64,000 nucleotides of DNA, from NCBI GenBank assembly GCA_030018695.1, contig JASEHI010000004.1, positions 774 to 64,773 on the forward strand. Reading direction: 5' to 3'. Positions 1 to 15,466 of this stretch are shown one piece after another. Source of the stretch: Anaerolineales bacterium (GTDB lineage: Bacteria; Chloroflexota; Anaerolineae; Anaerolineales; Villigracilaceae). Position numbers and translations under genes: made by a program. The notes under the pieces were generated by a model, which saw only the letters and a program-made list of their open reading frames with translations, was not told the DNA's origin and made no database searches. Each line of letters begins with the position of its first letter. Position 1 is the stretch's first letter.

Positions 1-92
1 GCATTGGGCCCAATCAAAATGTTGAATGGTCTCAGGGCAATATCCGCACGTTTCAAGCATTTGTAACGCGACACTTCGATTTTACTGAACAT
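1..92 (-). CDS. 5' end of a P-loop ATPase gene (AAA_15/21, OLD/RecF-like N-terminus); partial, continues past the left edge
   Basis: Not in the ORF track because it is open-ended. My translation from the ATG at 92-90 is MFSKIEVSRYKCLKRADIALRPFNILIGPNA. AGGAGG lies 3 nt upstream. It starts 48 nt after the SNF2 stop on the same strand. The FNILIGPN run normally precedes the Walker A motif in this ATPase class. Confidence 0.45.
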   Translation of the reverse strand, partial: MFSKIEVSRYKCLKRADIALRPFNILIGPN

Positions 93-140
93 GGGCCTCC
101 TTCGCGGAATCCTATCCTCTATTGTAATGGCAAACGCCGT

Positions 141-3100
141 CTATTTTGCCTGCCCCTTTGAAAGGATTTCACGGAACGAAACGATATACCGGACTTCGAC
201 CTGCTCTTCTGGTTTCAAGATACTCGCCGGATTCTGGATCATGTACAGAGTCGGACTGGAGGCGGTATTCAGGACGGCGTACAGGAAATACTCTTCGCCA
301 AAACGCTGTGCTTTGAACCATTCGTTCTGCGTCAGTGCCACGGAGCTGGAACCTGCCCTCCCTTTCACTTCGATATACCGCCGTTGGCCGTCTTTCCCGC
401 TCGAGCGCACGTCGAAGCCCAGATTCTCCTTCGAGACGTCCTCCGGGAGGCGACCTTGCGCTCGCTCATGATCCATCGTCACCTGCATGGCGATCGCCTC
501 AACCTGCGGGTCGGTGACCATCTCGTCCGCCCCCGCGGCCGGGACGACGCGCACCGCTCCCAGGAAACGCGGCGTGGAGAGGGTCAGGTTGCGCTCGCGT
601 TCCAGGTTGCGTTTCAGGTCCGACTTGGAATTCTGGTAACGTTGCATTTGCTCTTCTTTATTCCGGATGACCAGATCTACATTCTCCCCATTTTCGTGCC
701 TGATTTTCAAATTGATCAAGTCACCATCCAATTTCACGATCAACTGGTCCAGCGACTTCAACCCGTACTTCTCCTTGACCGCCGCCTGGCGCTGGCGCTC
801 CCTGAGCAGGTCCAGGCGGTAGGACTCCAGTTCGGGCAGCAGGATGCCCAGGGCCTTGCTCTGAACCGAATCCAGGGATGACTGCTCCCCTCTCCTTCCA
901 GGAGCCCCACAGGGGTGCTTCGCGAAGGGGCCGGGGGAAGCCCCCAGAATGGGGGTGAGGTCGCCCTCCTGCAAGTCCCATAAAATGGCCGGGTTGACCG
1001 GGGTGACCGCGCCGCTGCGCCCGTCGGCAAAAAGCGCAAACAGGCGCGTTCCGGCGATCTCGTTCTGCCCGTCGCGGATCTCGCCCTGGTAGAAGAGCAG
1101 CGTGCCGTCCATCAGCCCGTCCGGGTCAGTGAAGAGCGCCCCTTCCTTCATGGCGACGTCCAGGTTGCGCTCCACCCAGGTCAGCAGGGCTTCGAACAGC
1201 GGGGCCCCAAAGGTGACCAGTTCCGCCTGGGAGACGCGCATCGAGGCGTCCTTGTCGAAGGTCGCCAAGGGATAGCGCCGCAGGAGCGGGGCGAACTGCT
1301 TCTTGAAAGTCTCTTCCTCGCCGACCTGCCGCAGGGCGGACGGGACGCTCTCCACGCTCAAGAAGGCGCCCTCGGGGTACTCGGCGACTGTCTTCGGCTG
1401 CCACTTGCCGCCCAGCATCTCCATCGCCCGCTTGAAGAAAGCCGCAGTGTATTCCGGGATCAGGCGGTGCTCGCGCGCCTGGTCGGCCATCTCGCGGATG
1501 CGGGTGTAGTCAATGAAGCGGGTGGCCAGGCTCTCGCCCAGTTCCTCGCGCACCCGGGCGATGTACTCCGGGTCCACCTTGACCTCGATCTCGCGCAAGA
1601 TCTCGTCCATGCTGCGCGCCCCGCAGGCCGCTTCCACCAGCAGTTGCGAGAGATCCTGGCCCTGGATGATGTCGCCCAACACATCAAAGACCTTGTCACT
1701 GCCGAGCGCCTCGCGGATTTCTTCCAGTTTCTTGAACAAAGCGGTCAACACCTGCCCCTCGCGCGTATCCGTAGCCACCAGATTGAAGATAAAGACTTCG
1801 CGCGTCTGCCCGTAACGGTGAATGCGCCCCATACGCTGTTCCAACCGGTTCGGGTTCCACGGGATGTCGTAGTTAACCATCAGATTGCAAAATTGAAGGT
1901 TGATGCCTTCGCCGGCCGCCTCGGTCGCCACCAGCACTTGGGCCTCGTTCTTGAAGACCGACTCGGCCCGGATGCGTTCCTCCAGCCCCATCCCGCCGTG
2001 GATGGTGCAGACGCTGTAGTTCCAGCGGCGCAGGTTCTTTTCCAGATAATCCAGCGTGTCGCGCGACTCGGTAAAGATGAGAACTTTGGAACCGGGATTC
2101 TGGCGATTCAGGTCTTCGAGCGCTGTCTTGAGATGGCGTAACTTGGCCTCGGCCGGCGGAGCGGAGTTGGCGATGACCCTGGCCTGGTCAATCAGCCCGT
2201 CCAGCGTGTGCAGTTCTTCTACGAGTTCTTCGCGGTTCTCGGCGACGCTGAGCGTTTCCCATACCTCTTCCTGCTTCCAGCGCTCCTCCTCGCTCAGATC
2301 CTCGACTTCTTCGAAGTCGTACCCTGACTCGTTGCGATTCTTCTGCTCTGCGCCATGCAGCAGGTCCTCCAGTCGTTTCTTGCGCCGTTCGAGTGAGCGG
2401 AGCAGAGCGAAGGTGCTGGAGGCCAGCCTCCGCTGCAGGATGACCAGGGCAAAGGCCACGTTGCGGCGTTTGTCCTTGCTGAGGGCTTTGCCGTACTGCT
2501 CGTTGACGTAGCGCGACAGGGCATTGTAGAGTTCCTTCTCGGGGTAACTTTCCACGCCCAGGTTGAACGGCTTCGTAATTACATAGCGAGGCAAGAAAAT
2601 ATCACGACCCTCGAAGTCTTTCATGTCTTCCTTGAGCCTGCGGATGAAGAGCGGATTCTCCTGCTGGCGGATGGATTCAGCCACCATGTCTGTCGTTGCG
2701 AAGAAGCCCGGCTCCAGCAAATCCAGGAACAGGCGGAAGTTCTCCGGGTCGCCGCGATGCGGGGTGGCGGTCAGGAAGAGCAGGTGCGTGCAGATCTCCG
2801 AGAGCCTCTCCCCCAGCCGGTAGCGGATGGTCTTGTCCAGTTTTTCGCCGTAGCGGAAGGCGGACATTTTGTGCGCCTCGTCCACGACGATCAGGTCGAA
2901 TTGTACCGAGGCCAGGCCAGCCAGGATGTCGTCCTGTTTGGCGAAGTCAATCGAGGTAATTAATTGTTGCTCGCGTGCCCAAACATTCTGCCCGTAGAAA
3001 GCACCCATAATGCCGCGGTCTACGACCGTGAAAGTCTCCTCGAAGCGGTCCTTCATCTCCCGCCGCCACTGGTCCTTGAGATGCCCTGGCGATACGATCA

Positions 3101-3548
3101 GGATGCGCTTTGCCAGGTGGCGCAGTTTCAGTTCCTTGATAACCAGGCCGGCCATGATGGTCTTGCCGGCGCCGGGGTCGTCGGCGATCAGGAAGCGGAT
3201 GCGCGGCAACTTTAGCACGTGTCCATACACTGCTTCGATCTGGTGCGGCAGCGGGTCAACTTTGGAAGTGTTCATCGCCAGCAGCGGATCATATAACGAT
3301 GCAAAGCGATAGCGATGGGCTTCAAGAGCCAGGAACACGTGGCGTGGGTTGGCGGTAAACTGCGCCTTGATCTCCCCGCCCTTCACCTGTTCCAGTTCGG
3401 ACTTGGGCAGCATCTGGTCAATGTGGGTGCGCGAGTTCACCGTCGCGCCCACGATGCGAATATATTCACCGAGGTCTTCGATGAGATCAACTTTGATCGG
3501 TTCGGGCCAGCGTGGGCCCTGGATGATACTGCCGGGAGTAATGTTCAT
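141..3548 (-). CDS. SNF2-family DEAH helicase with a C-terminal DUF3883 / restriction-endonuclease-like domain
   Basis: Helicase motifs ADDPGAGKT (I), VVDEAHKM (II), LTATPHRG (III) and QRMGRIHRYGQ (VI). The C-terminus reads RRYIEVKGR...LTQNEW...EEYFLYAVLN. I chose the start at MNITPGS (3548) because the duplicated fragment at 4643-4773 begins at the same ATG. Confidence 0.85.
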   Translation of the reverse strand: MNITPGSIIQGPRWPEPIKVDLIEDLGEYIRIVGATVNSRTHIDQMLPKSELEQVKGGEIKAQFTANPRHVFLALEAHRYRFASLYDPLLAMNTSKVDPLPHQIEAVYGHVLKLPRIRFLIADDPGAGKTIMAGLVIKELKLRHLAKRILIVSPGHLKDQWRREMKDRFEETFTVVDRGIMGAFYGQNVWAREQQLITSIDFAKQDDILAGLASVQFDLIVVDEAHKMSAFRYGEKLDKTIRYRLGERLSEICTHLLFLTATPHRGDPENFRLFLDLLEPGFFATTDMVAESIRQQENPLFIRRLKEDMKDFEGRDIFLPRYVITKPFNLGVESYPEKELYNALSRYVNEQYGKALSKDKRRNVAFALVILQRRLASSTFALLRSLERRKKRLEDLLHGAEQKNRNESGYDFEEVEDLSEEERWKQEEVWETLSVAENREELVEELHTLDGLIDQARVIANSAPPAEAKLRHLKTALEDLNRQNPGSKVLIFTESRDTLDYLEKNLRRWNYSVCTIHGGMGLEERIRAESVFKNEAQVLVATEAAGEGINLQFCNLMVNYDIPWNPNRLEQRMGRIHRYGQTREVFIFNLVATDTREGQVLTALFKKLEEIREALGSDKVFDVLGDIIQGQDLSQLLVEAACGARSMDEILREIEVKVDPEYIARVREELGESLATRFIDYTRIREMADQAREHRLIPEYTAAFFKRAMEMLGGKWQPKTVAEYPEGAFLSVESVPSALRQVGEEETFKKQFAPLLRRYPLATFDKDASMRVSQAELVTFGAPLFEALLTWVERNLDVAMKEGALFTDPDGLMDGTLLFYQGEIRDGQNEIAGTRLFALFADGRSGAVTPVNPAILWDLQEGDLTPILGASPGPFAKHPCGAPGRRGEQSSLDSVQSKALGILLPELESYRLDLLRERQRQAAVKEKYGLKSLDQLIVKLDGDLINLKIRHENGENVDLVIRNKEEQMQRYQNSKSDLKRNLERERNLTLSTPRFLGAVRVVPAAGADEMVTDPQVEAIAMQVTMDHERAQGRLPEDVSKENLGFDVRSSGKDGQRRYIEVKGRAGSSSVALTQNEWFKAQRFGEEYFLYAVLNTASSPTLYMIQNPASILKPEEQVEVRYIVSFREILSKGQAK

Positions 3549-3630
3549 GATCAAATGCCCACTTGCCTGTATACGGGTAGGTTGCCAAGTAATCGCCAAC
3601 TAACCGCCGGTTATTTGCCAGGCAGGGCTG

Positions 3631-3692
3631 TGGCGTGTTTGGCGTGTTTCTGGCGTCTTAATGGCGTGTTTGGCGTGTTTCTGACGCCTTTA
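3631..3692. repeat. Tandem duplication, 2 x 31 bp (TGGCGTGTTTGGCGTGTTTCTGRCGYCTTWA); each unit contains GGCGTGTTT twice
   Basis: Direct reading gives 3631-3661 versus 3662-3692 with 3 mismatches. It spans the stop codon of the AlbA_2 gene and lies just upstream of the SNF2 start. Confidence 0.8.
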
Positions 3693-4572
3693 GTCGATAA
3701 AAGGTGCCTTTTCCGGTCAAACCAACTTGTTCAAGGATACCTTTCTGCACCAAGTCTGCAAGCTCTCGGCTTGCTGTGCGCGTGGATACCTGGCCGAGTT
3801 CCTGATATTCACTATTTGTGATGGAACCTTTTTCTTCAATCAACATTACTGCCCTGACCTGTCGCTCGCTCAATCTCAATGAGCGGAGTTGCCCCTCAAC
3901 CAAAATGTCATGGCGGAAAGCAACCCATAAAGCCCCCTGTTTTTCTTCAAACATAGGTTCAGGCAGTTTCGCCGCGGCGCATTCATCCAAAATCTTCTGG
4001 ATACCGCTGCCCCAGCGTTCGATCCAGCCGATATTGAAGAAGATTTCGGCGATCAGGCGACGCCCTTTCAAATTGCACAGCTTGCGGAATCGGCGTAGTT
4101 GTTTGGGGTCGAGGTCAGTAAGTTTGGCGCGCGGTTCGACAACCTGATCCCAGGTCATACCGACTTTTTCCAGGACGGCGCGAGTCAAGTCATCGTCGCT
4201 CATCTGGCGGTTGCTCTTGCCGACGCGCTTGAAATAACGCCCCCGACACGGAACCGGCTTGATAGCACTTTCGGCAACCTGGATGGCAACGACGGTTTTA
4301 CCTTCACGGGAAAAATGCTCTATCTGGTGTGGGTGTACGTGCGTGGCTTGGGCGATACGGTTGGTCCAATCTCGCAGAGTTTCCTTGCCCAGGGGTAGAC
4401 CTTTGACCGTGCCGTCATCTGCAACACCGACCAGCAGCACCCCGCCGTTGGCGTTGGCAAATGCGGAAATGGTCTCAACGGCCTCTTCGTCAAAACTTTC
4501 CTTGAACTCTATCGTTTCCGATTCTCCCTCAGCCAGCAGGCGGTTGAGATGAAAGACGCTTTCTTTGGTCAT
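3658..4572 (-). CDS. AlbA_2 (Schlafen-type) DNA-binding domain protein with C-terminal winged HTH; RecG-like putative transcriptional regulator family, with the central ATPase-like part apparently shortened
   Basis: N-terminus ESETIEFKESF...ISAFANANGGVLLVGVADDGTVKG. Central IGWIERWGSGIQKI. C-terminal HTH ITNSEYQELGQVSTRTASRELADLVQKGIL. Confidence 0.7.
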   Translation of the reverse strand: MTKESVFHLNRLLAEGESETIEFKESFDEEAVETISAFANANGGVLLVGVADDGTVKGLPLGKETLRDWTNRIAQATHVHPHQIEHFSREGKTVVAIQVAESAIKPVPCRGRYFKRVGKSNRQMSDDDLTRAVLEKVGMTWDQVVEPRAKLTDLDPKQLRRFRKLCNLKGRRLIAEIFFNIGWIERWGSGIQKILDECAAAKLPEPMFEEKQGALWVAFRHDILVEGQLRSLRLSERQVRAVMLIEEKGSITNSEYQELGQVSTRTASRELADLVQKGILEQVGLTGKGTFYRLKASETRQTRH

Positions 4573-4642
4573 TGCACTCCTTCAGATTTCATTGGCTTTT
4601 CGTTCCAGGTTTGAACTGATAAAAAGTAAGCCGCCTGCGGCT

Positions 4643-4773
4643 GTGCGCGAGTTCATCGTCGCGCCCACGATGCGGACATATTCACCAAGGTCTTCGACAA
4701 GGTCAACCTTGATCGGTTCGGGTCAGCGTGGGCCCTGGATGATACTGCCGGGAGTGATGTTCATGACATCAAG
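4643..4773 (-). pseudogene. Duplicated 5' fragment of the SNF2 helicase gene (about 42 codons with an in-frame TGA)
   Basis: About 92% identical to 3427-3554. It reads MNITPGSIIQGPR*PEPIKVDLVEDLGEYVRIVGATMNSRT, and homology then ends. Confidence 0.8.
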
Positions 4774-4799
4774 AACCCTTCGTGATTTAACTGTATCAC

Positions 4800-5063
4800 A
4801 TGATATTGAAAATTGGGAGACGCGCGGATGTGAAAGCCAATCCGCACAAATTTCGACACACATTTGCGATCAATTTTCTCCGTAATGGGGGGAACATCTT
4901 CGCTTTACAGGCCATCCTGGGACACACATCTCTGGAAATGGTAAAGCGATACCTCGCAATTGCGCAAGCAGATATCGAAGTCGTTCACCGGAAAGCATCA
5001 GTTGTTAATTGCTGGAACCTGGGGACAATCGGCATCGAATTGGCGCCCTCAATTCTCAACTAG
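4800..5063 (+). pseudogene. C-terminal fragment of a tyrosine recombinase / phage-type integrase
   Basis: NPHKFRHTFAINFL...LQAILGHTSLEMVKRYL carries the HxxR, LGH and catalytic Tyr boxes. The whole N-terminal two thirds of the protein is absent. Confidence 0.7.
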
Positions 5064-5089
5064 AACATATGAAAGCCAACTGAATAGTC

Positions 5090-5171
5090 TCCTCGCCGGG
5101 GATGGTTTAGCATTCCGGCGTATGAAAGGCTGTTAACCGCTAGGTTCGAGGTTCAAGTCCTCGGCGAGGAG
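5090..5171 (+). tRNA. tRNA-like element (probable pseudo-tRNA or att remnant); the anticodon arm cannot be folded
   Basis: 7-bp acceptor TCCTCGC/GCGAGGA. T arm CGAGG-TTCAAGT-CCTCG. Possible D arm GGGA/TTCC. Variable-arm-like hairpin AACC-GCTA-GGTT. Positions 5118-5134 form no 5-bp stem with a 7-nt loop. No CCA is encoded. Confidence 0.3.
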
Positions 5172-5176
5172 CCTTC

Positions 5177-5200
5177 AAGCCCGAAAGGGCTTTTTTTTTT
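5177..5200 (+). terminator. Rho-independent terminator
   Basis: AAGCCC-GAAA-GGGCTT followed by a run of 10 T. Confidence 0.7.
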
Positions 5201-5203
5201 ACT

Positions 5204-6742
5204 TCATACTTTATACAACAGGTCCGCGAATCGTCTGAGCATTTCGCTGACCACGCCGCGCAGGGGCATTGTGGCAGCCATGCCATAGATGGGCGCGCTT
5301 TCCCCTTTCTCTTCCGGATTAGCCCGGACATGCTTCACGGCTGTCCGCAGATCGGCGATGAATTTCTCGGCAACGCCGGGTTGAGTATGGCGCAGCGTTA
5401 CAGCAAGGTGAACTGACGGGGGTTTTTGGAGTGGATTTAGATTCCACTTGCGGACAGCCATGTAATCCATGACCTTATAAATATCCACTGCCTCGGAGGC
5501 GAAGGAAATGATCCACAGCGGATCGCCGAGCACGCGCAAGTCAGGGATGGACTCGATGCCTCGCTTTATACTATCCGCCGTCTGCAGAATTTTTCCGCTT
5601 GCCTCGAGATAGCCTTTTTCGCCCAGCGAAACCATCGCCGCCCAGCAGACCGCGCTCAAGCCGCCGGGACGGCTGCCGCTCATGTTGGGCGAGAAATACA
5701 GCCCACCCGGCCAATCGGCCGCGGTGAAATACTGATAACGCCGCAATTCCTGACCGCGATAGAGGACCACGGATGTGCCTTTGGCGGCATAGCCGTATTT
5801 GTGCGTATCGGCGGAAATGGAGGTCACGCCGGGCAGTCGGAAATCAAAGGGTGGGACGGGGTAGCCCAGTTTCTCGGCCCAGGGGAGGATGAAACCTCCC
5901 AGGCAGGCGTCGGTGTGGAAGCCGATCCCCCTTTCTCGCGCCATTGCGGACATTTCAGCGATCGGGTCAATCACGCCGTGCGGGAAGGTCGGCGCGGAGC
6001 CGATGATGGCGATGGTGTTGCGGTTGAGCGCCTTTTTAATGGCTTTCAGGTCGGCGCGGAAATCGGGGCCGAGCGGCGTGCGAACGATTTTGATCCCGAA
6101 ATACTGCGCGGCTTTGTCGAAGGCGGGATGCGCCGTCTCGGGAGCGACGATCTCGGGCCGGGGGATGCCTTTGCGCTCGCGCGCCTGGTCGCGGTAGGTC
6201 TTCATGGCAAGCAGGATGCTCTCGCTGCCGCCGGAGGTGACCGTACCGCAGAATTCGTTCGCTGTTTCCCCCGCGCCGAGCATCTGCGCGGTCATCGAGA
6301 CGATTTCCGCCTCGAACTTGGAGACGCTCGGCCAGAGGTCGGTGTGCAGCGGGTTGGCCTGTGAATGGATGGCGTAGACGCGGTTGAGGAAATCAATATA
6401 AGCCGGGTCGCCGTGATAGACTGCCCCGGAGACGAAGCCATCTTTCCAGCGCGCGGCCTCTCGATCACGCAATGTTTCCATCCCAGCGATGATCTCCTGG
6501 CGGTCGCGGCCAGTTTCAGGCAGGCGGGAAAAGGTCGGGAAATCGCCCCGGTATGGCTTGAGCGCAGGCTCCAACCGCTCCATGATTTCCCGGTATTCTT
6601 TCTCGATCATGGCCTGCACCGAGGGGATGCGCCGCAGGGTTTTTTCCAGCCTTGTCAGCAGGCGCGGGTTTATCCGCCCCAGATGAGTGTGCAGGAGTTT
6701 AATTTTGTCCATCATCCATCCATGTTCGGTGTTTACCCACAA
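5204..6742 (-). CDS. PLP-dependent group II decarboxylase, sphingosine-1-phosphate-lyase-like
   Basis: [17 protein letters not shown] and [20 protein letters not shown] (PLP lysine in the HKYG context). Confidence 0.8.
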
Positions 6743-6902: not shown

Positions 6903-8477
6903 TTAAGAATTCAGCCGCGCGCAAATCGGCCGGTTAGCCTGATAGAGGTTTACAAATTCCTTGAATAATTGGTCGTGGATTCTTCGGTTAGCCGGGTTGG
7001 CTTGAAAAGTATTGGTGATCTGCAGGCGCGCCGCGATTTCGTCGAATGTCGTCAGGCCGAGCGCGACGGTGGCCAGGAATGCCGCGCCGCGCAAACCGGC
7101 GCGGATCGGGTCTTTGACCTGCCGTATCGTGCGCTTCAGCACGTCGGCATGGATCTGGCACCAGATATCCGATTGCGCCCCGCCGCCGATCATGTTGATT
7201 GGCTCCATCCGCCGCCCGGCGAACCGTTCGACGCATTCGAGCAGCCAGCGGGCGTTATAGGCCACGCCCTCGAACACGGCGCGGACGAGCACGCGGCGGT
7301 CAGTCTTGAGGGACAGGTTGAAGAACCCGCCCCGAATCAACGCGTCTTCGACCGGCGTCCGCTCCCCGACCAGCCAGGGAGTGAAGATCACGCCTTCGCT
7401 CCCGGCCGGGGCCTGTTCGGCCATGCGGTCAAAGACTTCATAAATGTTGCCCGGAGGCGCGCCGGTCCGAAGTTCGTCTTCGGCGTAGAGCAGGTTGTCC
7501 CGCAGGAAATTCAGGCAGGCGCCGGCGCACTCCTGTTCATTGGCGATGTAGTATTTGCCGGGTATCGCCGAAGGCAGGGAGGCCATGCTGTGGAGCAGAT
7601 CAGTCTTTTTGAAGGGGACGTGGCAGGAAATCCACGACGAGGTGCCGAGGTAAAGATGTGCTTCGTAATCTCTCACCGCGCCGGAGCCGACGGCGGCCGA
7701 TTGCGCGTCGGTGGCGCCGGCGACGACCAGGGTCTTCTCTGACAGGCCAAGTTCCCGGGCGGCCTCCGCTCGGAGCGGGCCGAGGACGTCTAACGTGCGC
7801 CTGAGTTCGGGCAGTTTTTCCCGCTCGACGCCAGCCATCCCCAGTAGACGGTTATCCCAGAGGATGTTGTAGATATCGCGGTTGTCGGTGAGCCAGTGCA
7901 GATTGACGGAGTCGTAAGTCGCGGCGACCTGGCCGGTCAGGCGCATGTTGATGTAATCTTTAGGCTCGAGGAATTTGTAAGTTTGCCGGTAAATTTCGGG
8001 CAGTTCGTGTTTGACGAACAGGATGTGGGCGAGGGAATCTTTGCCCGAAGGTGTTGGCACGCCGCCGGTCAGGCGCAGCCAGGTCAGCAGTTTCCCGATC
8101 CCATAGCCCTGAATCTTGAAGATGCCATTCGTTGCTTTCTGGGCATACCGCGCGCCGCGCGTGTCCATCCAGAAGATGGCATTCATCAACGGGCGTCCGT
8201 CTCTGCCAACGGCGAGGGTGGTGGAGTACAGGCTGGCGCAGTTGACGGCGAGGATGTCTTCGGCCGGAACCGGGTTTTGCCTGATCACCCGCTGCGCCGC
8301 CCGCAGGATGGCCTGCCACCAGTCGTCCGGACGTTGCTCGATCCCGCCGTTGGGCAGGAAGAGGGTCTCGACCTTCTCGAATTCGCTGGCCAGGATTTCC
8401 CCGCGCGTCGAAACCAGCCCCACTTTTGGGCCGGAAGAGCCCAGGTCTATTGCCAGTGTGTATTTCTCGTTGGGCAT
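6903..8477 (-). CDS. FGGY-family carbohydrate kinase (xylulokinase-like)
   Basis: N-terminal YTLAIDLGSSGPKVGLV, and FGGY C-terminal domain IGGGAQSDIWCQIHADVL. Confidence 0.85.
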   Translation of the reverse strand: MPNEKYTLAIDLGSSGPKVGLVSTRGEILASEFEKVETLFLPNGGIEQRPDDWWQAILRAAQRVIRQNPVPAEDILAVNCASLYSTTLAVGRDGRPLMNAIFWMDTRGARYAQKATNGIFKIQGYGIGKLLTWLRLTGGVPTPSGKDSLAHILFVKHELPEIYRQTYKFLEPKDYINMRLTGQVAATYDSVNLHWLTDNRDIYNILWDNRLLGMAGVEREKLPELRRTLDVLGPLRAEAARELGLSEKTLVVAGATDAQSAAVGSGAVRDYEAHLYLGTSSWISCHVPFKKTDLLHSMASLPSAIPGKYYIANEQECAGACLNFLRDNLLYAEDELRTGAPPGNIYEVFDRMAEQAPAGSEGVIFTPWLVGERTPVEDALIRGGFFNLSLKTDRRVLVRAVFEGVAYNARWLLECVERFAGRRMEPINMIGGGAQSDIWCQIHADVLKRTIRQVKDPIRAGLRGAAFLATVALGLTTFDEIAARLQITNTFQANPANRRIHDQLFKEFVNLYQANRPICARLNS

Positions 8478-9043
8478 TTCGATCTCCTCGATAGATATAG
8501 CAACCCGACACTTTCATAAGTATGGTGGTCGAGTAGCCCCGAACGTCGTACTGAGCCTGTCGAAGTATGCTCTTTGAGGGGCGTATCGAGACCACACTTC
8601 AAGTCAAGATCATGCTGTTGGAATACTACCCGGCGATGTTATCAATTATACATGAGGCCACTTTTTCAGTGCGCTCACAGGGGATTATTAGGCTGTCTTG
8701 GAAATAGCCGGCATTTTCATGCTTTGTGGTGTCAAGCAGACATGATGTCTCATTGGGATTTGCCGTGTTTCGGCGGCAAATGTGGGACAAATTGCCAATT
8801 TGCCCTACGCCTTACCAGCATATGTGCTGGTTCCCGGTGATTCCCAGAGAGCCTTTTTTCTTGTATAATCTCTTATCGTGAACCGGAGCCCCGACTTTCT
8901 CTCTTTGATTTTGATGCCTGTGGACATGGGTGGCGCATTTATGATCTTGGGATTTATGCCAATGACGATTGAGCGAAAACCGCCCAGCAGGACTTGGACC
9001 GGGATCGTGACCCCTCCAAAAATTTCTGTGCTGTATGCGTCTA

Positions 9044-9904
9044 GTTGCAGTCGGTGGGGTGGTCTCCCACCCCACCGCTGCTACAGAACCGTGCATGAGA
9101 CTTTCGACCTCACACGGCTCCTGAGCATACGGGCCGTTGTCATCGGTACCATAACAACGAACCTTACCATTGTTGTGGCTTGACACCTGAACTGGTTGGA
9201 TGGCAGAGATTTGGTTATCCTCTGCGGTCTTCAGTACGTCAAAGACGCCTGCCATAAGACCCTTCACCTTCCAGTGCCTGTGTCTTCCCGTATACCCGCC
9301 CCACGTCAGCCTATCTCTGGCATTACCCAGAGCCTTAGCTTGTTTCGACAGGCTCAACACAAGTCTTGGGGCATCCCACCTGCCTATGGCTTACGGTTGG
9401 TTACCTGCTCCGCCAAAAGTGCAGGCGAAGAGCCACAGGAGGTTACTCCGTTCCGAGTGTCCATTGTTTCGTGACTTTAGGATGGCACTTCGCTTTGCGT
9501 GCCTTCGGCAACGCCGGTATCCTTTCGAGTGGTTACCATGCACCGATGTACTGCATGGCCTGGATACAGTCCCTTTTGGGTCTTGCCTGTCAGCCAAGTT
9601 TGGCAAGTTCTGCACACTTGCACCTGCGGCAAGTGCAGGTGTGACGACGCTTCAACCACACCTTCACTCATCGTTATCCATAGCCACTTGCTTGGGGCGA
9701 TGGCGACTTTTGGCTAGTCGCTTATCCCCTTTCCTTCCCGCTTCTGACCCGCGTTTACCAGGCGCACGCCAGGGGAGGGTGCTTTCACTCCACCACTTGG
9801 AGGGTAAGAGTTTCACTTACATGAACACTCAGTTGTCAAGGTTCGATGACCTTGCCGCTCAGCCCTCGTACCTTACGGTACAATTTCGAGCGAACGGGTC
9901 GCAC
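9044..9904 (-). mobile_element. Group II intron RNA, ORF-less (no maturase/RT), inserted in an attC-like site
   Basis: The 5' end is GTGCGACCC. Domain V at 9120-9086 reads GAGCCGTGTGAGGTCGAAAGTCTCATGCACGGTTC, with the AGC triad, a 2-nt bulge and a GAAA-type loop. Domain VI at 9081-9047 has a bulged A 7 nt from the 3' end (...CTGCAAC). No RT motifs appear in any frame. Confidence 0.8.
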
Positions 9905-10028
9905 ACAAGCGCGTGCAGCCGACGTTGCTACCGCGCCGCCCCAGCGAAGGCTCTGGTTATTCGGGCGAGTCTTGCCCGCGTAGGTGTCTCTAACACCCGC
10001 AACGCGGCTGACGCGCAGGTCGTTAGGC
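9905..10028 (+). other. attC-like recombination site 0. Its first 5 nt (GTCTA, 9039-9043) are separated from the rest by the intron.
   Basis: Reconstituted R'' is GTCTA|AC and R' is GTTAGGC (10022-10028). The stem GCGCGT(G)CAGCCG / CGGCTGACGCGC is 12 bp with one extrahelical G. Total length is 129 nt. Confidence 0.55.
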
Positions 10029-10049
10029 AGCAAGAGAAGGAGCAATCAT

Positions 10050-10739
10050 ATGGTGGAAGAAGATCCTATATTTCGCAAGCACGATCGATACAAGGCGAGT
10101 AGCTACAGCAGCTACAACTTCAAGATGCCGTCGCGTTACGACACCTGCTTCTGGCTTTGGTTCTGCCAGGCCGCGCTCTGGGATCGGACGCTAGTCGATG
10201 AGTTGCGGCCGACCATCAGCTCGCTTCGCATCCTCGACGTCGGTTGCGCCACAGGCCGGCTCCTGGAAGCACTCGCCGAAGCTGGAGCGTCTGAACTCTT
10301 TGGTACTGACCTAGCGCCCCGGATTCTTGAGGTAGCGCGGGAGAAGCTCTCCGAGACCGAGGCCAAGGTAGAACTCCAGACCGCCGATGCCGAGGATTCT
10401 CTGCCTTGGCCCTCGGAGTTCTTCGATGCCGTCACCCTCACGGGAGTGCTCCACCACTTCTTCCGCCCGCGAGACGCTCTCTCGGAAATCCGCCGGGTAC
10501 TGCGTCCAAGTGGCCGACTCCTCATCACCGATCCCTGCTTCTTCCCTCCGATCCGTCAAGTGCTCAACCTGGCTCTTCGCGTCGCGCCGCACGACGGTGA
10601 TTATCGGTTCTATTCACAGAGAGGTGCCGTTGAGCTCTTGGAGCGCACAAATTTTCATTGTTTGGGAGCCAGACGCGTAGGCTTGTGGGGATACCTCATC
10701 ACAGCCGCAAAGCCAGACGCGTCCAGGGACACTGCCTAA
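10050..10739 (+). CDS. Class I SAM-dependent methyltransferase (Methyltransf_11/25 type), cassette-borne
   Basis: ILDVGCATGRLLEALAE (motif I) and VLRPSGRLLITD. AAGGAG lies 7 nt before the ATG at 10050. The ORF-track start at 9984 would read through the R' box. The TAA stop lies inside GCCTAAC. Confidence 0.8.
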   Translation: MVEEDPIFRKHDRYKASSYSSYNFKMPSRYDTCFWLWFCQAALWDRTLVDELRPTISSLRILDVGCATGRLLEALAEAGASELFGTDLAPRILEVAREKLSETEAKVELQTADAEDSLPWPSEFFDAVTLTGVLHHFFRPRDALSEIRRVLRPSGRLLITDPCFFPPIRQVLNLALRVAPHDGDYRFYSQRGAVELLERTNFHCLGARRVGLWGYLITAAKPDASRDTA

Positions 10740-10860
10740 CAACTCGCTGCACCTGACGGGGCTACAGCTGCGCGATTCAAGCATTCTGAGGCAGCATAGG
10801 TGGCTTCGGCGGCCGCGAGTCTTGCCAGCGCCGCCCCGCAGCTTAGCCGGAGCGTTAGGC
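10734..10860 (+). other. attC-like recombination site 1
   Basis: R'' GCCTAAC (10734-10740) and R' GTTAGGC (10854-10860), 127 nt in total. Inner pairing CGGGGC/GCCCCG and GGCGGC/GCCGCC. It shares GAGTCTTGCC with site 0. Confidence 0.55.
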
Positions 10861-10885
10861 ACCTGGTCTAGGAAAACCATACATT

Positions 10886-11749
10886 ATGAAAGCGTATGAA
10901 TACATCACAGCAAAGCAAATACAATGGGCGTTAAATCGTGGTATTCCGCTTGTCGGTAGTAAAGGTGATAAAGGTCGCCCCGCATATACTCCTGAACTCA
11001 ATCAAAATCTATTTGAACCTTTGAGTTTAGATACCCGCAAAAGTTTTGAACAAGGTGACGGGGGCGAAATCAGTGGAAATCCAGCCAAAATGCAGGCGGT
11101 ACATTCATCATCCGCTTTAGGCGTCAATGTTTTTCAATATTGGCAAAATATTGGGCAAGTGTCCGCTATTGCGTCTGCTTGTGGTTTTTGTCGAAAAGGA
11201 AATATTGTCTCCGAAAAAATTGTGTTTGAAGATAAATATCCAGTGGACGACAATTTAGATAAATTTCCTAAAGCCCCGAACATTGATGTTGTTTTCCACA
11301 ACACCGACTCGGCTCAATTCAAAAGATTTGCCGTCGAGTGTAAATTTTCAGAAGCATACGGCTTGCAAAAACATACCGGCTTGAAGCCCGCATATCTTGA
11401 GTTAATTCATTTGTGGTCAGACATTCCAAGTTTGTATGAATTCGCAAAAACTATCTGCCCAAATGAGAACTTTACCTATTTTCATTCTGCTCAATTAATC
11501 AAACACATTCTTGGTCTTAAGAGAAGTTTTGGCAGGAGTGGTTTTAGGCTTCTCTATCTTTGGTATGATGTTTTAGGCAAAGAAGGGGCTATTCACCAAG
11601 ACGAGGTTAATGAGTTTTCTGGTGTTGCAAAGGCTGATGGAATTCACTTTAACGCCATGTCATATCAAAAGTTAATTCTTGTGGCATCCAGAGAGTACAG
11701 GCAAGAACACACTACATACATCAAGTATTTGAGCGAGCGATATTTGTAA
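10886..11749 (+). CDS. Uncharacterised PD-(D/E)xK-type nuclease-fold protein, AT-rich cassette gene
   Basis: PNIDVVFHN...KRFAVECKFSE matches a D...ExK core. The segment is visibly more AT-rich than all its flanks. The ATG lies 25 nt after the R' box. Confidence 0.55.
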   Translation: MKAYEYITAKQIQWALNRGIPLVGSKGDKGRPAYTPELNQNLFEPLSLDTRKSFEQGDGGEISGNPAKMQAVHSSSALGVNVFQYWQNIGQVSAIASACGFCRKGNIVSEKIVFEDKYPVDDNLDKFPKAPNIDVVFHNTDSAQFKRFAVECKFSEAYGLQKHTGLKPAYLELIHLWSDIPSLYEFAKTICPNENFTYFHSAQLIKHILGLKRSFGRSGFRLLYLWYDVLGKEGAIHQDEVNEFSGVAKADGIHFNAMSYQKLILVASREYRQEHTTYIKYLSERYL

Positions 11750-12017
11750 TTCACAAGGTTGTTGTAAAATTGGGCAAGGCACTTTTAATAGCCAGCGAGT
11801 CTTCAAGTTCTGCCGTGCCTAACACAGCGTGGGTGTGTCCTGAAAGTCATCGTCTGCTTGCTGGCCGCGAAGCGAGTCCAGTCCTGATTTCGACAGGCTC
11901 AATCCAAGGGTAACGGTCAGGCGGCCAGGTTTCGACAAGGTCTCGACAAGCTCGACCCGGCGGCTCAACCTACCAGGTAGCAGGCCCTTCGGCAATGCAG
12001 CCGGGTGACTGGGTTTC

Positions 12018-12066
12018 GACACCGTTCGTGCCGCGAACAACGGCGGCACGCCGGTGCGAGACGGCA
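12018..12066. repeat. REP-like hairpin repeat (family A), copy a
   Basis: GACACCGTTCGTGCCGCGAACAACGGCGGCACGCCGGTGCGAGACGGCA, with the stem CACCG..CGTGCCGC / GCGGCACG.CGGTG. Confidence 0.8.
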
Positions 12067-12181
12067 AGCTCAACCTGCCAGCTATGTCGAAGCGTTGCCG
12101 AAGGTCCCTGAGAAAGGGAAGCAAAGCAGCAGCCCGTAACACACAGTGCTGTGCATAAAGTGAACCCTTCGACAGGGTTTC

Positions 12182-12251
12182 GACACCGTTCGTCCACAGG
12201 ATCGCTTCACTGATGCCGCGAACAACGGCGGCACGCCGGTGCGAGACGGCA
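12182..12251. repeat. REP-like hairpin repeat (family A), copy b, carrying a 21-bp internal insertion
   Basis: Same core as copy a, interrupted at 12194-12214. Confidence 0.75.
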
Positions 12252-12373
12252 GGCTCAACCCGGCGGCTCAGGGCAAGTCTTGCAGCACCGACATGTTAGC
12301 CCCTTAAGGGGAGCAAGAGAGAGCCGAGCCTGCGACGGTTTTTTTTATTTTCCGGGGTGTTTTTTCTTTTTTA

Positions 12374-12604
12374 GTGGAAGAATTGCGGGCAACAATAAAA
12401 GCCTCCGCTCCTGACGCAGAAGAAATAATTAGTTATCAAATGCCTACTTTCGCTCTGAAAGGTAATATAGTCCATTTTGCTGCCTGGAAAAAGCATATTG
12501 GGTTTTATCCAACGTCAAGCCAAGCAATAGATTCGGCAAGTTGGGAAGAGCTTTGTGTGCTAAAATCCGGTTATGAAAGTTCGCGCCGTTATCAAACTCA
12601 TTGA
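12374..12604 (+). pseudogene. DUF1801 (YdhG-like) domain fragment
   Basis: EELRATIKASAPDAEEIISYQMPTFALKGNIVHFAAWKKHIGFYP. The N-terminal part is missing and the C-terminus diverges where hicA begins. Confidence 0.5.
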
Positions 12605-12668
12605 AGTAGATGGCTGGTATCTGGTTGTGACAAAAGGTAGCCATGTATCGCTTTCTTATCGTTATTGA
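12573..12668 (+). pseudogene. hicA: Truncated hicA toxin (31 codons)
   Basis: My translation is MKVRAVIKLIEVDGWYLVVTKGSHVSLSYRY*. Homology stops right after the conserved GSH, at the point where the hicB ATG (12643) begins. Confidence 0.6.
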
Positions 12669-12858
12669 AAAAGCAAATGGCAATTACTCGGCATATTGCC
12701 CTGACTTACCTGGCTGTGTTGCCACCGGCAAGACACGCGAAGAAACAGAGCGCAATATGCACGAAGCCGTAGAAATGCACGTACAAGGCATGATTGAAGA
12801 TAAAATGCCCATCCCCGAAAGCGTCACGCTTGCGGAATATATCGCCGTAGCAGTGTAA
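12643..12858 (+). CDS. hicB: HicB-family antitoxin
   Basis: YRFLIVIEKANGNYSAYCPDLPGCVATGKTREETERNMHEAVEMHV. Confidence 0.8.
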   Translation: MYRFLIVIEKANGNYSAYCPDLPGCVATGKTREETERNMHEAVEMHVQGMIEDKMPIPESVTLAEYIAVAV

Positions 12859-13132
12859 TCAACCAGTCTGAGTGTCTGGTCAGATATAAGCAGGTTAACA
12901 AAGCGTCTACCAGGCGGAGCTAATTCCCCGCGAAAACTGGCGTTGAGCGACAAAAATTTGGGGTTTAAAGAGCCACTTTTTGCGCCATTCAAGCAGATTT
13001 AGTCCAAAATTGTCTGGATGTCCAATACGTTTTTCGACCTGTCTCATGCAAAACTGTGCAAAGCGCCCCTTTTACGGCCCGAAAAAGCCGTTGGACGCAA
13101 ACCCCTTCGGGAAGGTAGCGGAAAATAAGTGA

Positions 13133-15466
13133 TTACTTGATCGCTGGCACAGGCGCCTTTGAACGCCGGATCGCCCAGGTGACGCCGACGAGTAAAATGA
13201 TAGCGATTAAGAAGGCTCCGACACTGACGCCTCCGCTGGTCGCGCTGTACTTGACGATGATCGGGGCAGCCAGCAGGCTGACCAGGTTGACAACCTTGAT
13301 CATCGGATTCAAAGCTGGCCCAGCGGTATCCTTCAGCGGGTCGCCAACTGTATCGCCAACCACGCCCGCCTTATGCCTTTCGGAACCCTTGCCGGTATTC
13401 TTTTCCAGATCGCGGGGTTCGTCCTCGATGGATTTCTTGGCGTTATCCCAGGCGCCGCCCGCATTTGACATGAAGACCGCCAGCATTTGGCCGCTGAGAA
13501 TGACACCCGCCAGGAAGCCGCCCAGGGCTTCGACCTGCAGGATCAACCCAACCGCGATCGGCATTAGCACCGAGATGGTTGCCAGGGGGATCAATTCCTT
13601 TTGCGCCGAGGCGGTGGAAATGTCAACCACGCGCGCATAATCAGGTTTAACTTTACCTTCCATCAAGCCAGGGATCTTGAACTGGCGGCGCACTTCTTCC
13701 ACAACCTTGCTGGCCGCACGGCTTACGGCGCGGATTGCCAGCGAACTGAACAGCCAGGGTAATGCCCCGCCCAGTAAGAAGCCGACGAAAACCCTGGTGT
13801 CAGAAATGCGAATATCCTTGATCAACTGGACCCCCTGCTGTCCCGCGTCGATCAATTGCTGCTGGACAATGCCGATATCGGTAATATAGGAGGCGAAAAG
13901 GCTGACCGCGGCAATGACTGCCGAGGCAATCGCGATGCCCTTGGTGATGGCCTTCGTTGTGTTGCCCACTGCATCCAGATCAGCCATAATCTGCCGCGCC
14001 TTCATTGTCTCTTCGTCCTTCATACCCTGCCAGGCCATCTCGCCAATACCGTTGGCATTGTCCGATATCGGCCCGTAGGAGTCCATGGCTACATTGTTGC
14101 CGGTGTGGCTCAACATGCCGATGCCGATCATGGCGACGGCGTACAAGACGTAAGTTGAATGGGTCTCACCGCCATAGAGCAGCAAGGCAGCGATGAAGCT
14201 GATCACGATCACCACCAAAGCCCACACGCTTGACTCCATGCCGACGGAAAGACCCGAAAGGATCGTCGTCGCCGGACCGGTTTTGGTCGCCTCCACGATT
14301 TCCTTGACTGGCGCTTTTTTCGTGGATGTAAAATAGGATGTCAGCGGGTTGAACGCCACCGCCAAACCAACGCCGATCGCAGTCAACATCGCCAGCCGCC
14401 AGTCTTGGGCATAGAAAATAGCCAGCAGGAAGGACCACAGCACGGTGTTGATGCTGGAAACTTCGTAAGAACGGAACATGGCTTCTTCAGCATCGTGGGC
14501 GCGCAAGAACTTGATCGGGAATTTCACCCACATCGGGACGGTGAAAGTACCGATGATGGAAGAAATCACGCCAATGGCGCGGATGATGAGCGGAAAGACG
14601 ATCCACTTCAGGCTGTGGGTCGGGTCAATTGCCATGAGCGCCAGGCCGAGCAGCAAGCTGGAAACAATGGTGACCTCGTAGCTCTCGAAGATGTCAGCCG
14701 CCATGCCGGCGCAGTCACCCACGTTGTCGCCGACCAGGTCGGCAATGACAGCCGCATTGCGCGGGTCATCTTCGGGGATGTCTTTCTCGACCTTGCCCAC
14801 CAGGTCCGCGCCGACATCCGCGGCCTTGGTGAAAATACCACCTCCCACGCGCATGAACAATGCCAGGAGCGTGCCACCGAAACCGAAGCCGAGCAGAGCG
14901 TCGGGAGAGGCCTTGCCGAAAACGATGAAAATAAGCGTGCCGCCAAAGAGTCCCAGGCCGTCTACCAACATTCCGGTGACCGTTCCGGAGTAATACGCAA
15001 TGGAGAGTGATTCGTTGAAACTGCGCCGGGCTGCAGAAGCCGCGCGGACATTGGCCTGGATCGCCATGCGCATGCCCAACTGACCCACGAGCAGTGAAAA
15101 TAGCGCCCCCATGATAAAGGCTATCGTCCGCCCGATGGCGACGATAATCTGGGCATTCTTGCCGAATTCTTCTGCGGCTTCGCGGGTTGGGGGTACGATG
15201 TAAACGCTCAGGAAAAGCACCACTGTCAGCGCGCCGATGACCGGCAGGATGGTGCGCAATTGGCGGTTCAGATAACTATCTGCACCGATGCGGATCGCAT
15301 TCCACACCTCTTGCATTTTTTGGGTGCCTTTGTCCTTTTTAAGGACAATACCGCGTAATAACCAGGCATAAAGCAAGCTGGCAAACGCAGTCAGCACCAC
15401 TCCCACAATTGCTATCTGCTCGAACGAATTTAAACCATGTCGGCTGCCAAGCCAAAGCAAGTCCAT
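13133..15466 (-). CDS. hppA: Membrane-bound proton-translocating pyrophosphatase
   Basis: GGIFTKAADVGADLVGKVE, DNVGDCAGMAADIFESY and GDTVGDPLKDTAGPALN. The start at MDLLWL is preceded by AGGAGG. Confidence 0.9.
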   Translation of the reverse strand: MDLLWLGSRHGLNSFEQIAIVGVVLTAFASLLYAWLLRGIVLKKDKGTQKMQEVWNAIRIGADSYLNRQLRTILPVIGALTVVLFLSVYIVPPTREAAEEFGKNAQIIVAIGRTIAFIMGALFSLLVGQLGMRMAIQANVRAASAARRSFNESLSIAYYSGTVTGMLVDGLGLFGGTLIFIVFGKASPDALLGFGFGGTLLALFMRVGGGIFTKAADVGADLVGKVEKDIPEDDPRNAAVIADLVGDNVGDCAGMAADIFESYEVTIVSSLLLGLALMAIDPTHSLKWIVFPLIIRAIGVISSIIGTFTVPMWVKFPIKFLRAHDAEEAMFRSYEVSSINTVLWSFLLAIFYAQDWRLAMLTAIGVGLAVAFNPLTSYFTSTKKAPVKEIVEATKTGPATTILSGLSVGMESSVWALVVIVISFIAALLLYGGETHSTYVLYAVAMIGIGMLSHTGNNVAMDSYGPISDNANGIGEMAWQGMKDEETMKARQIMADLDAVGNTTKAITKGIAIASAVIAAVSLFASYITDIGIVQQQLIDAGQQGVQLIKDIRISDTRVFVGFLLGGALPWLFSSLAIRAVSRAASKVVEEVRRQFKIPGLMEGKVKPDYARVVDISTASAQKELIPLATISVLMPIAVGLILQVEALGGFLAGVILSGQMLAVFMSNAGGAWDNAKKSIEDEPRDLEKNTGKGSERHKAGVVGDTVGDPLKDTAGPALNPMIKVVNLVSLLAAPIIVKYSATSGGVSVGAFLIAIILLVGVTWAIRRSKAPVPAIK

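Follow-up and report, generated by a model that had tools for sequence, protein, structure and literature searches.

What is the block of defence-like genes that lies beside an integrase fragment at one end of a contig from an Anaerolineales bacterium, and which system do these genes belong to? The window analysed here, the whole stretch of 64,000 nucleotides (G000:C137:774-64773), belongs to a metagenome-assembled genome (MAG) of 2.86 Mb in 192 contigs, 94% complete (genomes, contigs and loci are denoted by G, C and L numbers, G000 being the genome of the window). The initial annotation had described the first 5,200 nt as part of an integrated island with a helicase-nuclease and an ABC-type ATPase, a pairing which it could not assign to any named defence system. 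Our answer, to which we give a probability of about 0.88, is that the block is the attR-proximal end of an island inserted in the 3' end of tRNA-Asn(GTT), whose cargo is a decayed Hma system with only hmaA intact. It is built from direct observations: which genes are present, where they are truncated, the att repeat and the empty site.

Protein identities were obtained by profile searches against Pfam, PADLOC and NCBIfam, and the tRNA was analysed with ARAGORN, Rfam and BLAST. The comparison set consisted of 18 related hmaA loci outside the window, and 8 HmaA homologues were aligned for the motif check. The following features, in window coordinates, are referred to below:

1..91, minus strand: 5' end of the embedded ABC (AAA_21) ATPase gene, predicted HEC-01A/Mad3 type; start at 91, 76 native codons left
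141..3548, minus strand: hmaA, an intact SNF2-type helicase of 1135 aa from the ATG of MNITPGS, with a C-terminal NOV_C/DUF3883 PD-(D/E)xK nuclease
881..953, minus strand: palindromic repeat of the repetitive extragenic palindrome (REP)-like type in hmaA; an in-frame insertion of ~20 extra residues (…GASPGPFAKHPCGAPGRRGEQ…) in a variable linker
3427..3550, minus strand: direct-repeat copy 1 (repeat family D1, 124 nt), the live hmaA 5' end (start plus 41 codons)
3551..3690, minus strand: Schlafen-hmaA spacer (repeat family D2), with AACACGCCA-type tandem repeats at 3631-3690
~3583-3612, minus strand: three degenerate copies of the 11-mer GTTGGCGATTA, in the same spacer
3658..4572, minus strand: prokaryotic Schlafen gene (AlbA_2, HATPase_c_4 remnant and winged helix-turn-helix, wHTH), 304 aa, with a ~160-aa in-frame internal deletion
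4629..4642, minus strand: terminator-like hairpin, AGCCGCAGGCGGCT then TACTTTTTAT, at the left edge of the putative inserted cassette
4643..4766, minus strand: dead stub, a second hmaA 5' end (start plus 41 codons) in which codon 14 reads TGA instead of TGG
4800..5063, plus strand: tyrosine-recombinase remnant, the last 87 aa with HxxR and the region of the catalytic Tyr; ~220-260 aa are gone from the N-terminus
5087..5172, plus strand: pseudo-tRNA, attR; its 3' 45 nt (5128-5172) equal the 3' part of tRNA-Asn(GTT)
5177..5202, plus strand: intrinsic terminator of the original tRNA-Asn (hairpin 5177-5192 plus T10), the best in the region
5204..6742, minus strand: PLP-dependent decarboxylase gene (Pfam and NCBIfam), chromosomal flank outside the island

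The limits of the island are given by the tRNA gene. Positions 5128-5172 are 100% identical over 45 nt to C161:843-887, within the only tRNA-Asn(GTT) of the genome (called at C161:843-916). When the C161 flank, which carries glpX and the tRNA, is joined to the window from 5173 onwards, the joined sequence matches G002:C11 end to end at 86%, that is, an empty site; the same query matches G001:C5, where the order is tRNA, terminator, a small AbrB/PIN pair and the decarboxylase gene. On the basis of these matches, the island lies between tRNA-Asn (attL) and 5128-5172 (attR). The decarboxylase gene is contiguous with glpX-tRNA-Asn in G002, the same terminator hairpin is found directly past tRNA-Asn in both G001 and G002, and the terminator of the window is the native one of tRNA-Asn, displaced to the attR side of the island. 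At the opposite end, an HTH_17 excisionase-type gene adjoins attL on C161, and then the contig ends. With mapped attL and attR repeats and an empty site in a sister genome, the integrated island with defence genes that had been proposed from the window is borne out, together with the dead tyrosine recombinase (4800-5063), the tRNA-like structure (5087-5172) and the strong terminator (5177-5192) on which that proposal was founded.

The tRNA-like structure is a composite. In its 5' part the acceptor 7-mer TCCTCGC is retained, while the D arm is foreign and 8 nt disrupt the anticodon stem; it looks like a tRNA because the element-side arm also has TCCTCGC and a D-arm-like hairpin. ARAGORN at default settings and Rfam (E<=1) call no tRNA at 5087-5172, and relaxed ARAGORN calls one. 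The sole Rfam match, Atu_C8 at 20 bits, was dismissed as noise. The remains of the integrase match Phage_integrase profile positions 115-169 of 172 (2e-12, Pfam) and, in NCBIfam, only the C-terminal parts of XerA, XerC and XerD. An in-frame TAA at 4788 precedes the fragment, related open frames in the genus have 306-354 aa, and a functional integrase was not found here, only the last 87 codons of one. The arrangement resembles that of other tRNA-targeting islands in that a 45-nt tRNA 3' repeat bounds the island and an integrase adjoins one end, and differs from them in that the integrase is dead and the attR copy retains a tRNA-like 5' half.

Two side observations concern the tRNA-Asn site. 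Extra tRNA-Asn 3' ends of 37-39 nt, which have a left arm in common with each other but different from that of the window, occur at L163 and L164 (G006:C58:~22890 and G006:C139:~8000); since the left arms differ, the 5' half of the pseudo-tRNA is specific to the element of the window, and in this genus the tRNA-Asn site serves a further family of elements. Furthermore, L050:700-1500 (G001:C5:~1395-2195) carries an AbrB/SpoVT-type antitoxin and a PIN toxin at the very junction used by the G000 island.

What, then, is the cargo? The definition and behaviour of Hma used here were drawn from four sources (PMC8565338; bioRxiv 10.1101/2024.01.29.577857; PMC11232893; PMC12839542). The system comprises HmaA (a helicase), HmaB (a methyltransferase) and HmaC (an ATPase), is present in 26 phyla (Payne et al., 2021, PMC8565338) and has been renamed the type-1 DUF499-centred BREX-related (BR) system (PMC12839542). 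In approximately 63-66% of Hma loci, further defence genes are nested between the hma genes (bioRxiv 10.1101/2024.01.29.577857). The scheme proposed for the family resembles restriction-modification (RM): (i) HmaB marks self DNA; (ii) HmaC senses or loads; and (iii) HmaA translocates and nicks (PMC11232893; PMC12839542). The Halomonas HmaA alone shielded Escherichia coli from T4, for which the D/E/K/E residues of the NOV_C nickase were required (Liu et al., 2024, PMC11232893).

The 1135-aa protein, correctly described beforehand as an SNF2 DEAH helicase ending in DUF3883, is on sequence grounds the full-length HmaA of this published Hma or type-1 BR system. Pfam identifies Helicase_C, ResIII, SNF2-rel_dom and, at the C-terminus, NOV_C (= DUF3883; residues 1016-1104, 1.6e-23), and the PADLOC HmaA match (5.2e-201) aligns residues 6-1109 with profile positions 10-1148 of 1176. 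All the helicase motifs that are invariant in the 8 homologues are kept (DDPGAGKT 123-130, DEAH 223-226, QRMGRIHRYGQ 571-581), as are the invariant nuclease residues D1046, E1060-V-K1062 and E1076; the mutations made in Halomonas HmaA were at the residues equivalent to this D...ExK...E tetrad. The gene is patchy, being present in 7/41 related genomes and in 2/7 within the genus, and its contexts are variable and island-like. In these respects the locus is like published Hma: it has the HmaA architecture and full-length profile match, nested defence genes near hmaA, an integrase nearby, and a mobile, patchily distributed context. It is unlike published Hma in having neither hmaB nor hmaC, an IS-cut first embedded gene (IS, insertion sequence) and an hmaA with a REP-like insertion.

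All three genes of the block are co-oriented on the minus strand, as the initial annotation stated (3658-4572, 141-3548 and a start at 91), and relatives show a like nesting of defence genes. In the order derived from intact relatives, hmaA (an SNF2 translocase joined to a PD-(D/E)xK nickase) would be followed by optional embedded modules, hmaB (DUF1156 DNA methyltransferase) and hmaC (DUF499 ATPase); of the 18 related hmaA loci, 12 run downstream into hmaB with 0-7 genes between, and 6 reach hmaC. The gene after hmaA had been described as an OLD/RecF-like ATPase leaving the window, in a system cut by the window edge. Its start at 91, 49 nt past the helicase stop with a GGAGG site ahead, stands, and the protein reads MFSKIEVSRYKCLKRADIALRPFNILIGPNA...; what interrupts it is an IS followed by the contig end, not merely the edge of the window. 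The frame has 82 codons and then a stop, and the next open reading frame (ORF) is transposase-like and runs off the contig. In L032, hmaA is followed by an ATPase of 417 aa; the ATPase stub of the window is 79% identical to the N-terminus of that protein, and the likeness ends at ...DPDKG, codon 76. The IS terminus is found after that codon, at C137:637, which is 136 nt left of the window; the contig reaches just 773 nt left of the window start and ends inside the IS. A full-length HEC-01A-type ATPase is not present at the locus, residues 1-76 being native and the rest IS sequence.

The transposase fragment beside the stub matches NF033591 of the IS4 family (5.8e-12, NCBIfam). The same IS end also closes contigs C157, C83 and C84, each with a different flank. 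The element has at least 4 distinct insertion flanks in the assembly (C137:1-637, the end of C157, the end of C83 and the start of C84), and its copy on C157 adjoins the start of a 746-aa methyltransferase-like gene.

Decay also affects the Schlafen gene. Its homologues have 452-489 aa; the 304-aa protein aligns with them at both ends, with a gap of ~160 residues between ...CNLKGR and RLIAEIFF. The homologues used for this comparison are ~70% identical to the window protein. The in-frame deletion takes the linker and half of the HATPase_c_4 (HisKinase-like sensor) domain, namely its first half, so that the domain matches only profile positions 42-89 of 89 (Pfam); a complete HATPase_c_4 domain was not found in the window protein. 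The signs of decay are an IS4-family insertion cutting the embedded ATPase, the loss of ~160 sensor-domain residues from the Schlafen gene, the stop codon in the hmaA stub and the shrinking of the integrase to 87 codons. Any remaining protection would come from HmaA alone, through ATP-driven translocation and nicking of phage DNA, by analogy with Halomonas HmaA in E. coli.

Several points weigh against a decayed Hma system as the cargo. Neither hmaB nor hmaC, both definitional, adjoins hmaA before the contig ends in the IS. Since the contig ends inside an IS, the absence of hmaB and hmaC may reflect deletion or a failure of assembly or binning. A 132-nt (44-codon) hmaC start, 96% identical to hmaC of the sister genome G004, lies at the beginning of C152, not linked to hmaA, so part of the Hma system may lie elsewhere. 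Lastly, the REP-like insertion, which may affect the enzyme, sits in frame within hmaA. The inserted residues are missing from 8/8 aligned HmaA homologues; the DNA (core GGAGCCCCACAGGGGTGCTTCGCGAAGGGGCCGGGGG) recurs at least 8 more times in the genome and forms a hairpin of -37 kcal/mol. The insertion is a further sign of neglect, though it may be tolerated.

The likeliest of the alternatives, which we still consider unlikely, is an Hma system that works and is in essence complete, the IS being no more than an insertion in the embedded ATPase, or a variant carried by a minority, with DUF4276, hmaB and hmaC just beyond it on unassembled or unbinned DNA. Consistent with it, the contig stops in a multi-copy IS without any onward k-mer link (an assembly-graph walk via shared 55-mers found no links from the starts of C137, C161 and C152), the completeness of the MAG is 94%, the intact hmaA has kept all its catalytic motifs, and the hmaC start exists on C152. 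Nevertheless, profile searches and tblastn with proteins of close relatives, including those of L032 and L035, found no ATPase remainder, DUF4276 partner or orthologous hmaB anywhere in the assembly. A single gene resembles HmaB strongly; it lies on C113, belongs to a separate PLD-helicase system and has 27-31% identity to HmaB of the relatives; a weaker match to the HmaB profile occurs on C157. The hmaC fragment (C152:1-133, L162, minus strand) has chromosomal and repeat DNA upstream, not hmaB, and represents a stub or else the margin of an Hma remnant that was not assembled. Moreover, the rest of the block (integrase, stub and Schlafen gene) is decayed.

At G000 C113:7694-20736 (L160:694-13736, minus strand) lies a complete second, paralogous system, which fits the published type-2 BR layout: it begins with an HmaC-like DUF499 ATPase (1.9e-107), continues through four embedded genes (one ASCH-DUF7680, one Asp-protease-like ORF and two unknowns) to an HmaB-like DUF1156 methyltransferase (4.5e-81), and ends in a helicase whose N-terminus is a PLD domain (PLD_Helicase 1.7e-79). 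Regarding the spaces between hma genes, a ~110-nt tandem repeat family fills the hmaA-hmaB and hmaB-hmaC gaps in some loci (L036:6580-7424 and 10390-10843; L035:19076-19391), a single family occupying both gaps in L036; such repeats may mark insertion hot spots.

The AlbA_2 protein raises a second question, namely whether it regulates hmaA; the initial annotation had labelled it a regulator, with AlbA_2 and wHTH domains. Both domains are present: Pfam gives SLFN_AlbA_2 at 3e-21 and, at residues 234-295, DIP2311-like_C and MarR matches for the C-terminal wHTH. A transcriptional regulator of hmaA, binding the tandem 9-11-nt motifs before the hmaA start, would agree with this wHTH and with the short tandem repeats that fill the spacer upstream of hmaA. 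It would also agree with two properties of the homologues: their neighbour genes are nearly all co-oriented with them, and at nine distinct loci the GTTGGCGATTA array comes directly after the stop codon of the homologue. These arrays, of 2-4 copies one helical turn apart, follow Schlafen-HisKinase-wHTH genes that are merely 45-75% identical (L063:3445-3485, L064:7452-7481, L069:6374-6392, L086:2045-2074, L087:6341-6390 and L141:3315-3344 hold further examples), and could represent a conserved operator or a recombination site.

Against a regulator of hmaA, the AlbA_2 gene is upstream of hmaA in 0/18 other hmaA loci, homologues adjoin unrelated genes (ADH, polysaccharide synthesis, pglX, hsdM/S), the Ex4ExK nuclease motif is conserved (E17, E22 and K24 in GESETIEFKES), and the window copy is without ~160 residues. 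In addition, published work interprets proteins built in this way as RNase effectors joined to sensor domains (PMC12839542; Taboada et al., 2025, preprint). Among prokaryotic Schlafen architectures, HisKinase-HTH ranks second in frequency, with an Ex4(E/D)xK motif (Taboada et al., 2025, preprint), and Schlafen-HisKinase-wHTH proteins stand beside BREX/BR loci in no fewer than 1017 taxa, and are listed there as a back-up RNase effector (PMC12839542). Other Schlafen fusions have been shown to defend through tRNA cleavage (Taboada et al., 2025, preprint, among other sources); the cited Schlafen literature reports no defence test of the HisKinase-HTH class itself.

The neighbours of the Schlafen homologues point in the same direction. 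The survey covered 84 neighbours at 42 loci; type I RM methyltransferases make up at least 10 of these and specificity subunits ~7, and one homologue lies 46 nt after a full HmaA homologue. Because these neighbours (RM, BREX and HmaA) agree with the literature on defence companions, "regulator" is the less likely reading, and a dedicated regulator of hmaA appears improbable to us; the protein is more likely, as its domains suggest, an internally deleted back-up effector of Schlafen type. It shares with the HisKinase-HTH class the AlbA_2 domain with Ex4ExK, the HATPase_c_4 remnant, the wHTH and the position beside a BR core gene, and differs from it in the ~160 residues deleted in frame. PADLOC has no model for this Schlafen architecture and returned partial pAgo and Aga matches only.

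As a separate observation on this gene family, a BREX type 1 locus (L065:3993-9368) has its Schlafen gene between ORFs matching PglX profile positions 14-648 and 657-1195: the inserted gene divides the pglX methyltransferase cleanly in two, and nothing is duplicated.

A new, unnamed two-gene defence system, composed of the helicase-nuclease and the ABC ATPase, is a highly improbable reading. The two genes are co-oriented and 49 nt apart, and a check of neighbourhood conservation, as had been advised, did find the pairing in L032 (hmaA 75% identical) and L035; most hmaA loci, however, are without the ATPase, its cluster being present in 3/19 with the window counted. In L032 and L035 the order is hmaA, a 417/419-aa AAA_21 ATPase with its own DUF4276 (Mad4-like) partner, and hmaB (followed in L035 by hmaC). 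The 82-aa ORF has its best match in PADLOC HEC-01A (2.3e-20), and then in the PDC-M25A, NsnB, AriA and Mad3 models. HEC-01 is catalogued as Hma-embedded candidate 01, an ABC ATPase and a TOPRIM protein with their own defence activity (Payne et al., 2024, bioRxiv 10.1101/2024.01.29.577857). The pairing once regarded as unassignable is resolved into two known parts, the helicase being HmaA (PADLOC) and the ATPase, as far as its remaining codons reveal, the first gene of a separate embedded two-gene module (AAA_21 and DUF4276/TOPRIM-like; HEC-01 or Mad3-Mad4 type), not HmaC. It is like HEC-01 in its N-terminal 76 residues (Walker A, FNILIGPNASGKS), with their best match in HEC-01A, and like L032 and L035 in its position directly after hmaA; it is unlike HEC-01 in that 18% of the ATPase is left and the DUF4276 partner is absent.

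A housekeeping identity as RecF, RecN or SMC was considered for the ATPase and rejected: the best matches are defence ATPases (HEC-01A, PDC-M25A, NsnB and AriA), and housekeeping families give no match. The recF or recN identity named at the outset as a possible refutation does not apply; relatives of full length are of the AAA_21 type and occur in Hma loci together with a DUF4276 partner.

Equally improbable is that the helicase is DrmD of DISARM or the BREX helicase BrxHI/II: the secondary matches are strong (PADLOC DrmD 3.6e-146 and BrxHI 2.2e-115; NCBIfam DrmD 393 bits), but they are confined to the helicase core (residues 6-685 only), the 393 bits fall short of the 610-bit cut-off, HmaA alone has the C-terminal NOV_C nuclease and aligns over the full length, and no DrmA/B/C or BREX core genes lie nearby.

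With a decayed Hma system as the preferred reading of the cargo, a last question concerns how the Schlafen gene came to lie beside hmaA. The stub at 4643-4766 is 92% identical over 124 nt to the live copy at 3427-3550, and the hairpin at 4629..4642 begins exactly at the end of the stub-hmaA similarity, the Schlafen gene being next. The stub is 87.7% identical to hmaA of G004 and is, for this reason, a distinct allele, not a fresh in-situ copy. As to which 5' end, stub or live, is the native one, the comparison with G004 hmaA is uninformative, both being ~86-88% identical. The Schlafen cassette would have entered via recombination anchored in hmaA homology. Integration of the phage 21/e14 type supplies a replacement gene end, and the displaced end stays as a repeat. 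The Schlafen cassette is alike on a smaller scale, with a replacement hmaA 5' end and the old end as a stub, and unlike in that it has no recombinase gene.

The same arrangement exists in G004, where Hma occupies another chromosomal site (L173 (G004:C338) 8413-13588, and L174 (G004:C178)), with hmaA 91.6% identical at the nucleotide level; that site is empty in G000 (C148:~43071-43090). The order in G004 is hmaB, a PDDEXK_3 gene flanked by an 88-nt repeat, a 61-nt hmaC 5' stub (92%), an AlbA_2-HATPase_c_4 gene and intact hmaC. In L066, a 52-nt stub (90%) of a downstream, unrelated 84-aa ORF is found ahead of the Schlafen gene, and the Schlafen homologues of L058 and L064 lie between partial duplicates of neighbouring genes, an ADH gene and a polysaccharide-synthesis gene. 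Flanking direct repeats were found at 12/56 Schlafen homologue loci against 3/300 random positions in this genome, and in 8/30 against 5/62 when compared with pseudo-genes in the same loci (p = 0.025). As these neighbourhoods are repeat-rich in themselves, we claim no strong enrichment. A search of the 18 other hmaA loci for like stubs found none, only tandem intergenic repeats.

We propose, tentatively and as one possibility among others, that Schlafen-type (AlbA_2-HisKinase±wHTH) genes spread between defence loci as small recombinase-less cassettes which carry a replacement end of the target gene, integrate by homology-anchored recombination and leave the displaced end as a dead stub. The GTTGGCGATTA tandem array at the 3' end of the cassette may act in cis. 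The stub-cassette-gene layout is the one fresh point of this analysis, a lead with modest statistical support.

As a defence system the locus adds little, since Hma is named, widespread and partly characterised, and the copy in the window is broken. Its value is that of a well-resolved example of decay, with mapped att sites, an empty-site control and only the effector HmaA intact. If the cassette proposal is true, cassette insertion would explain in concrete terms how defence genes become embedded in Hma, BREX and type I RM loci, a point left unexplained in the cited literature, and the scar beside hmaA could show how accessory defence genes enter conserved defence operons without breaking them.

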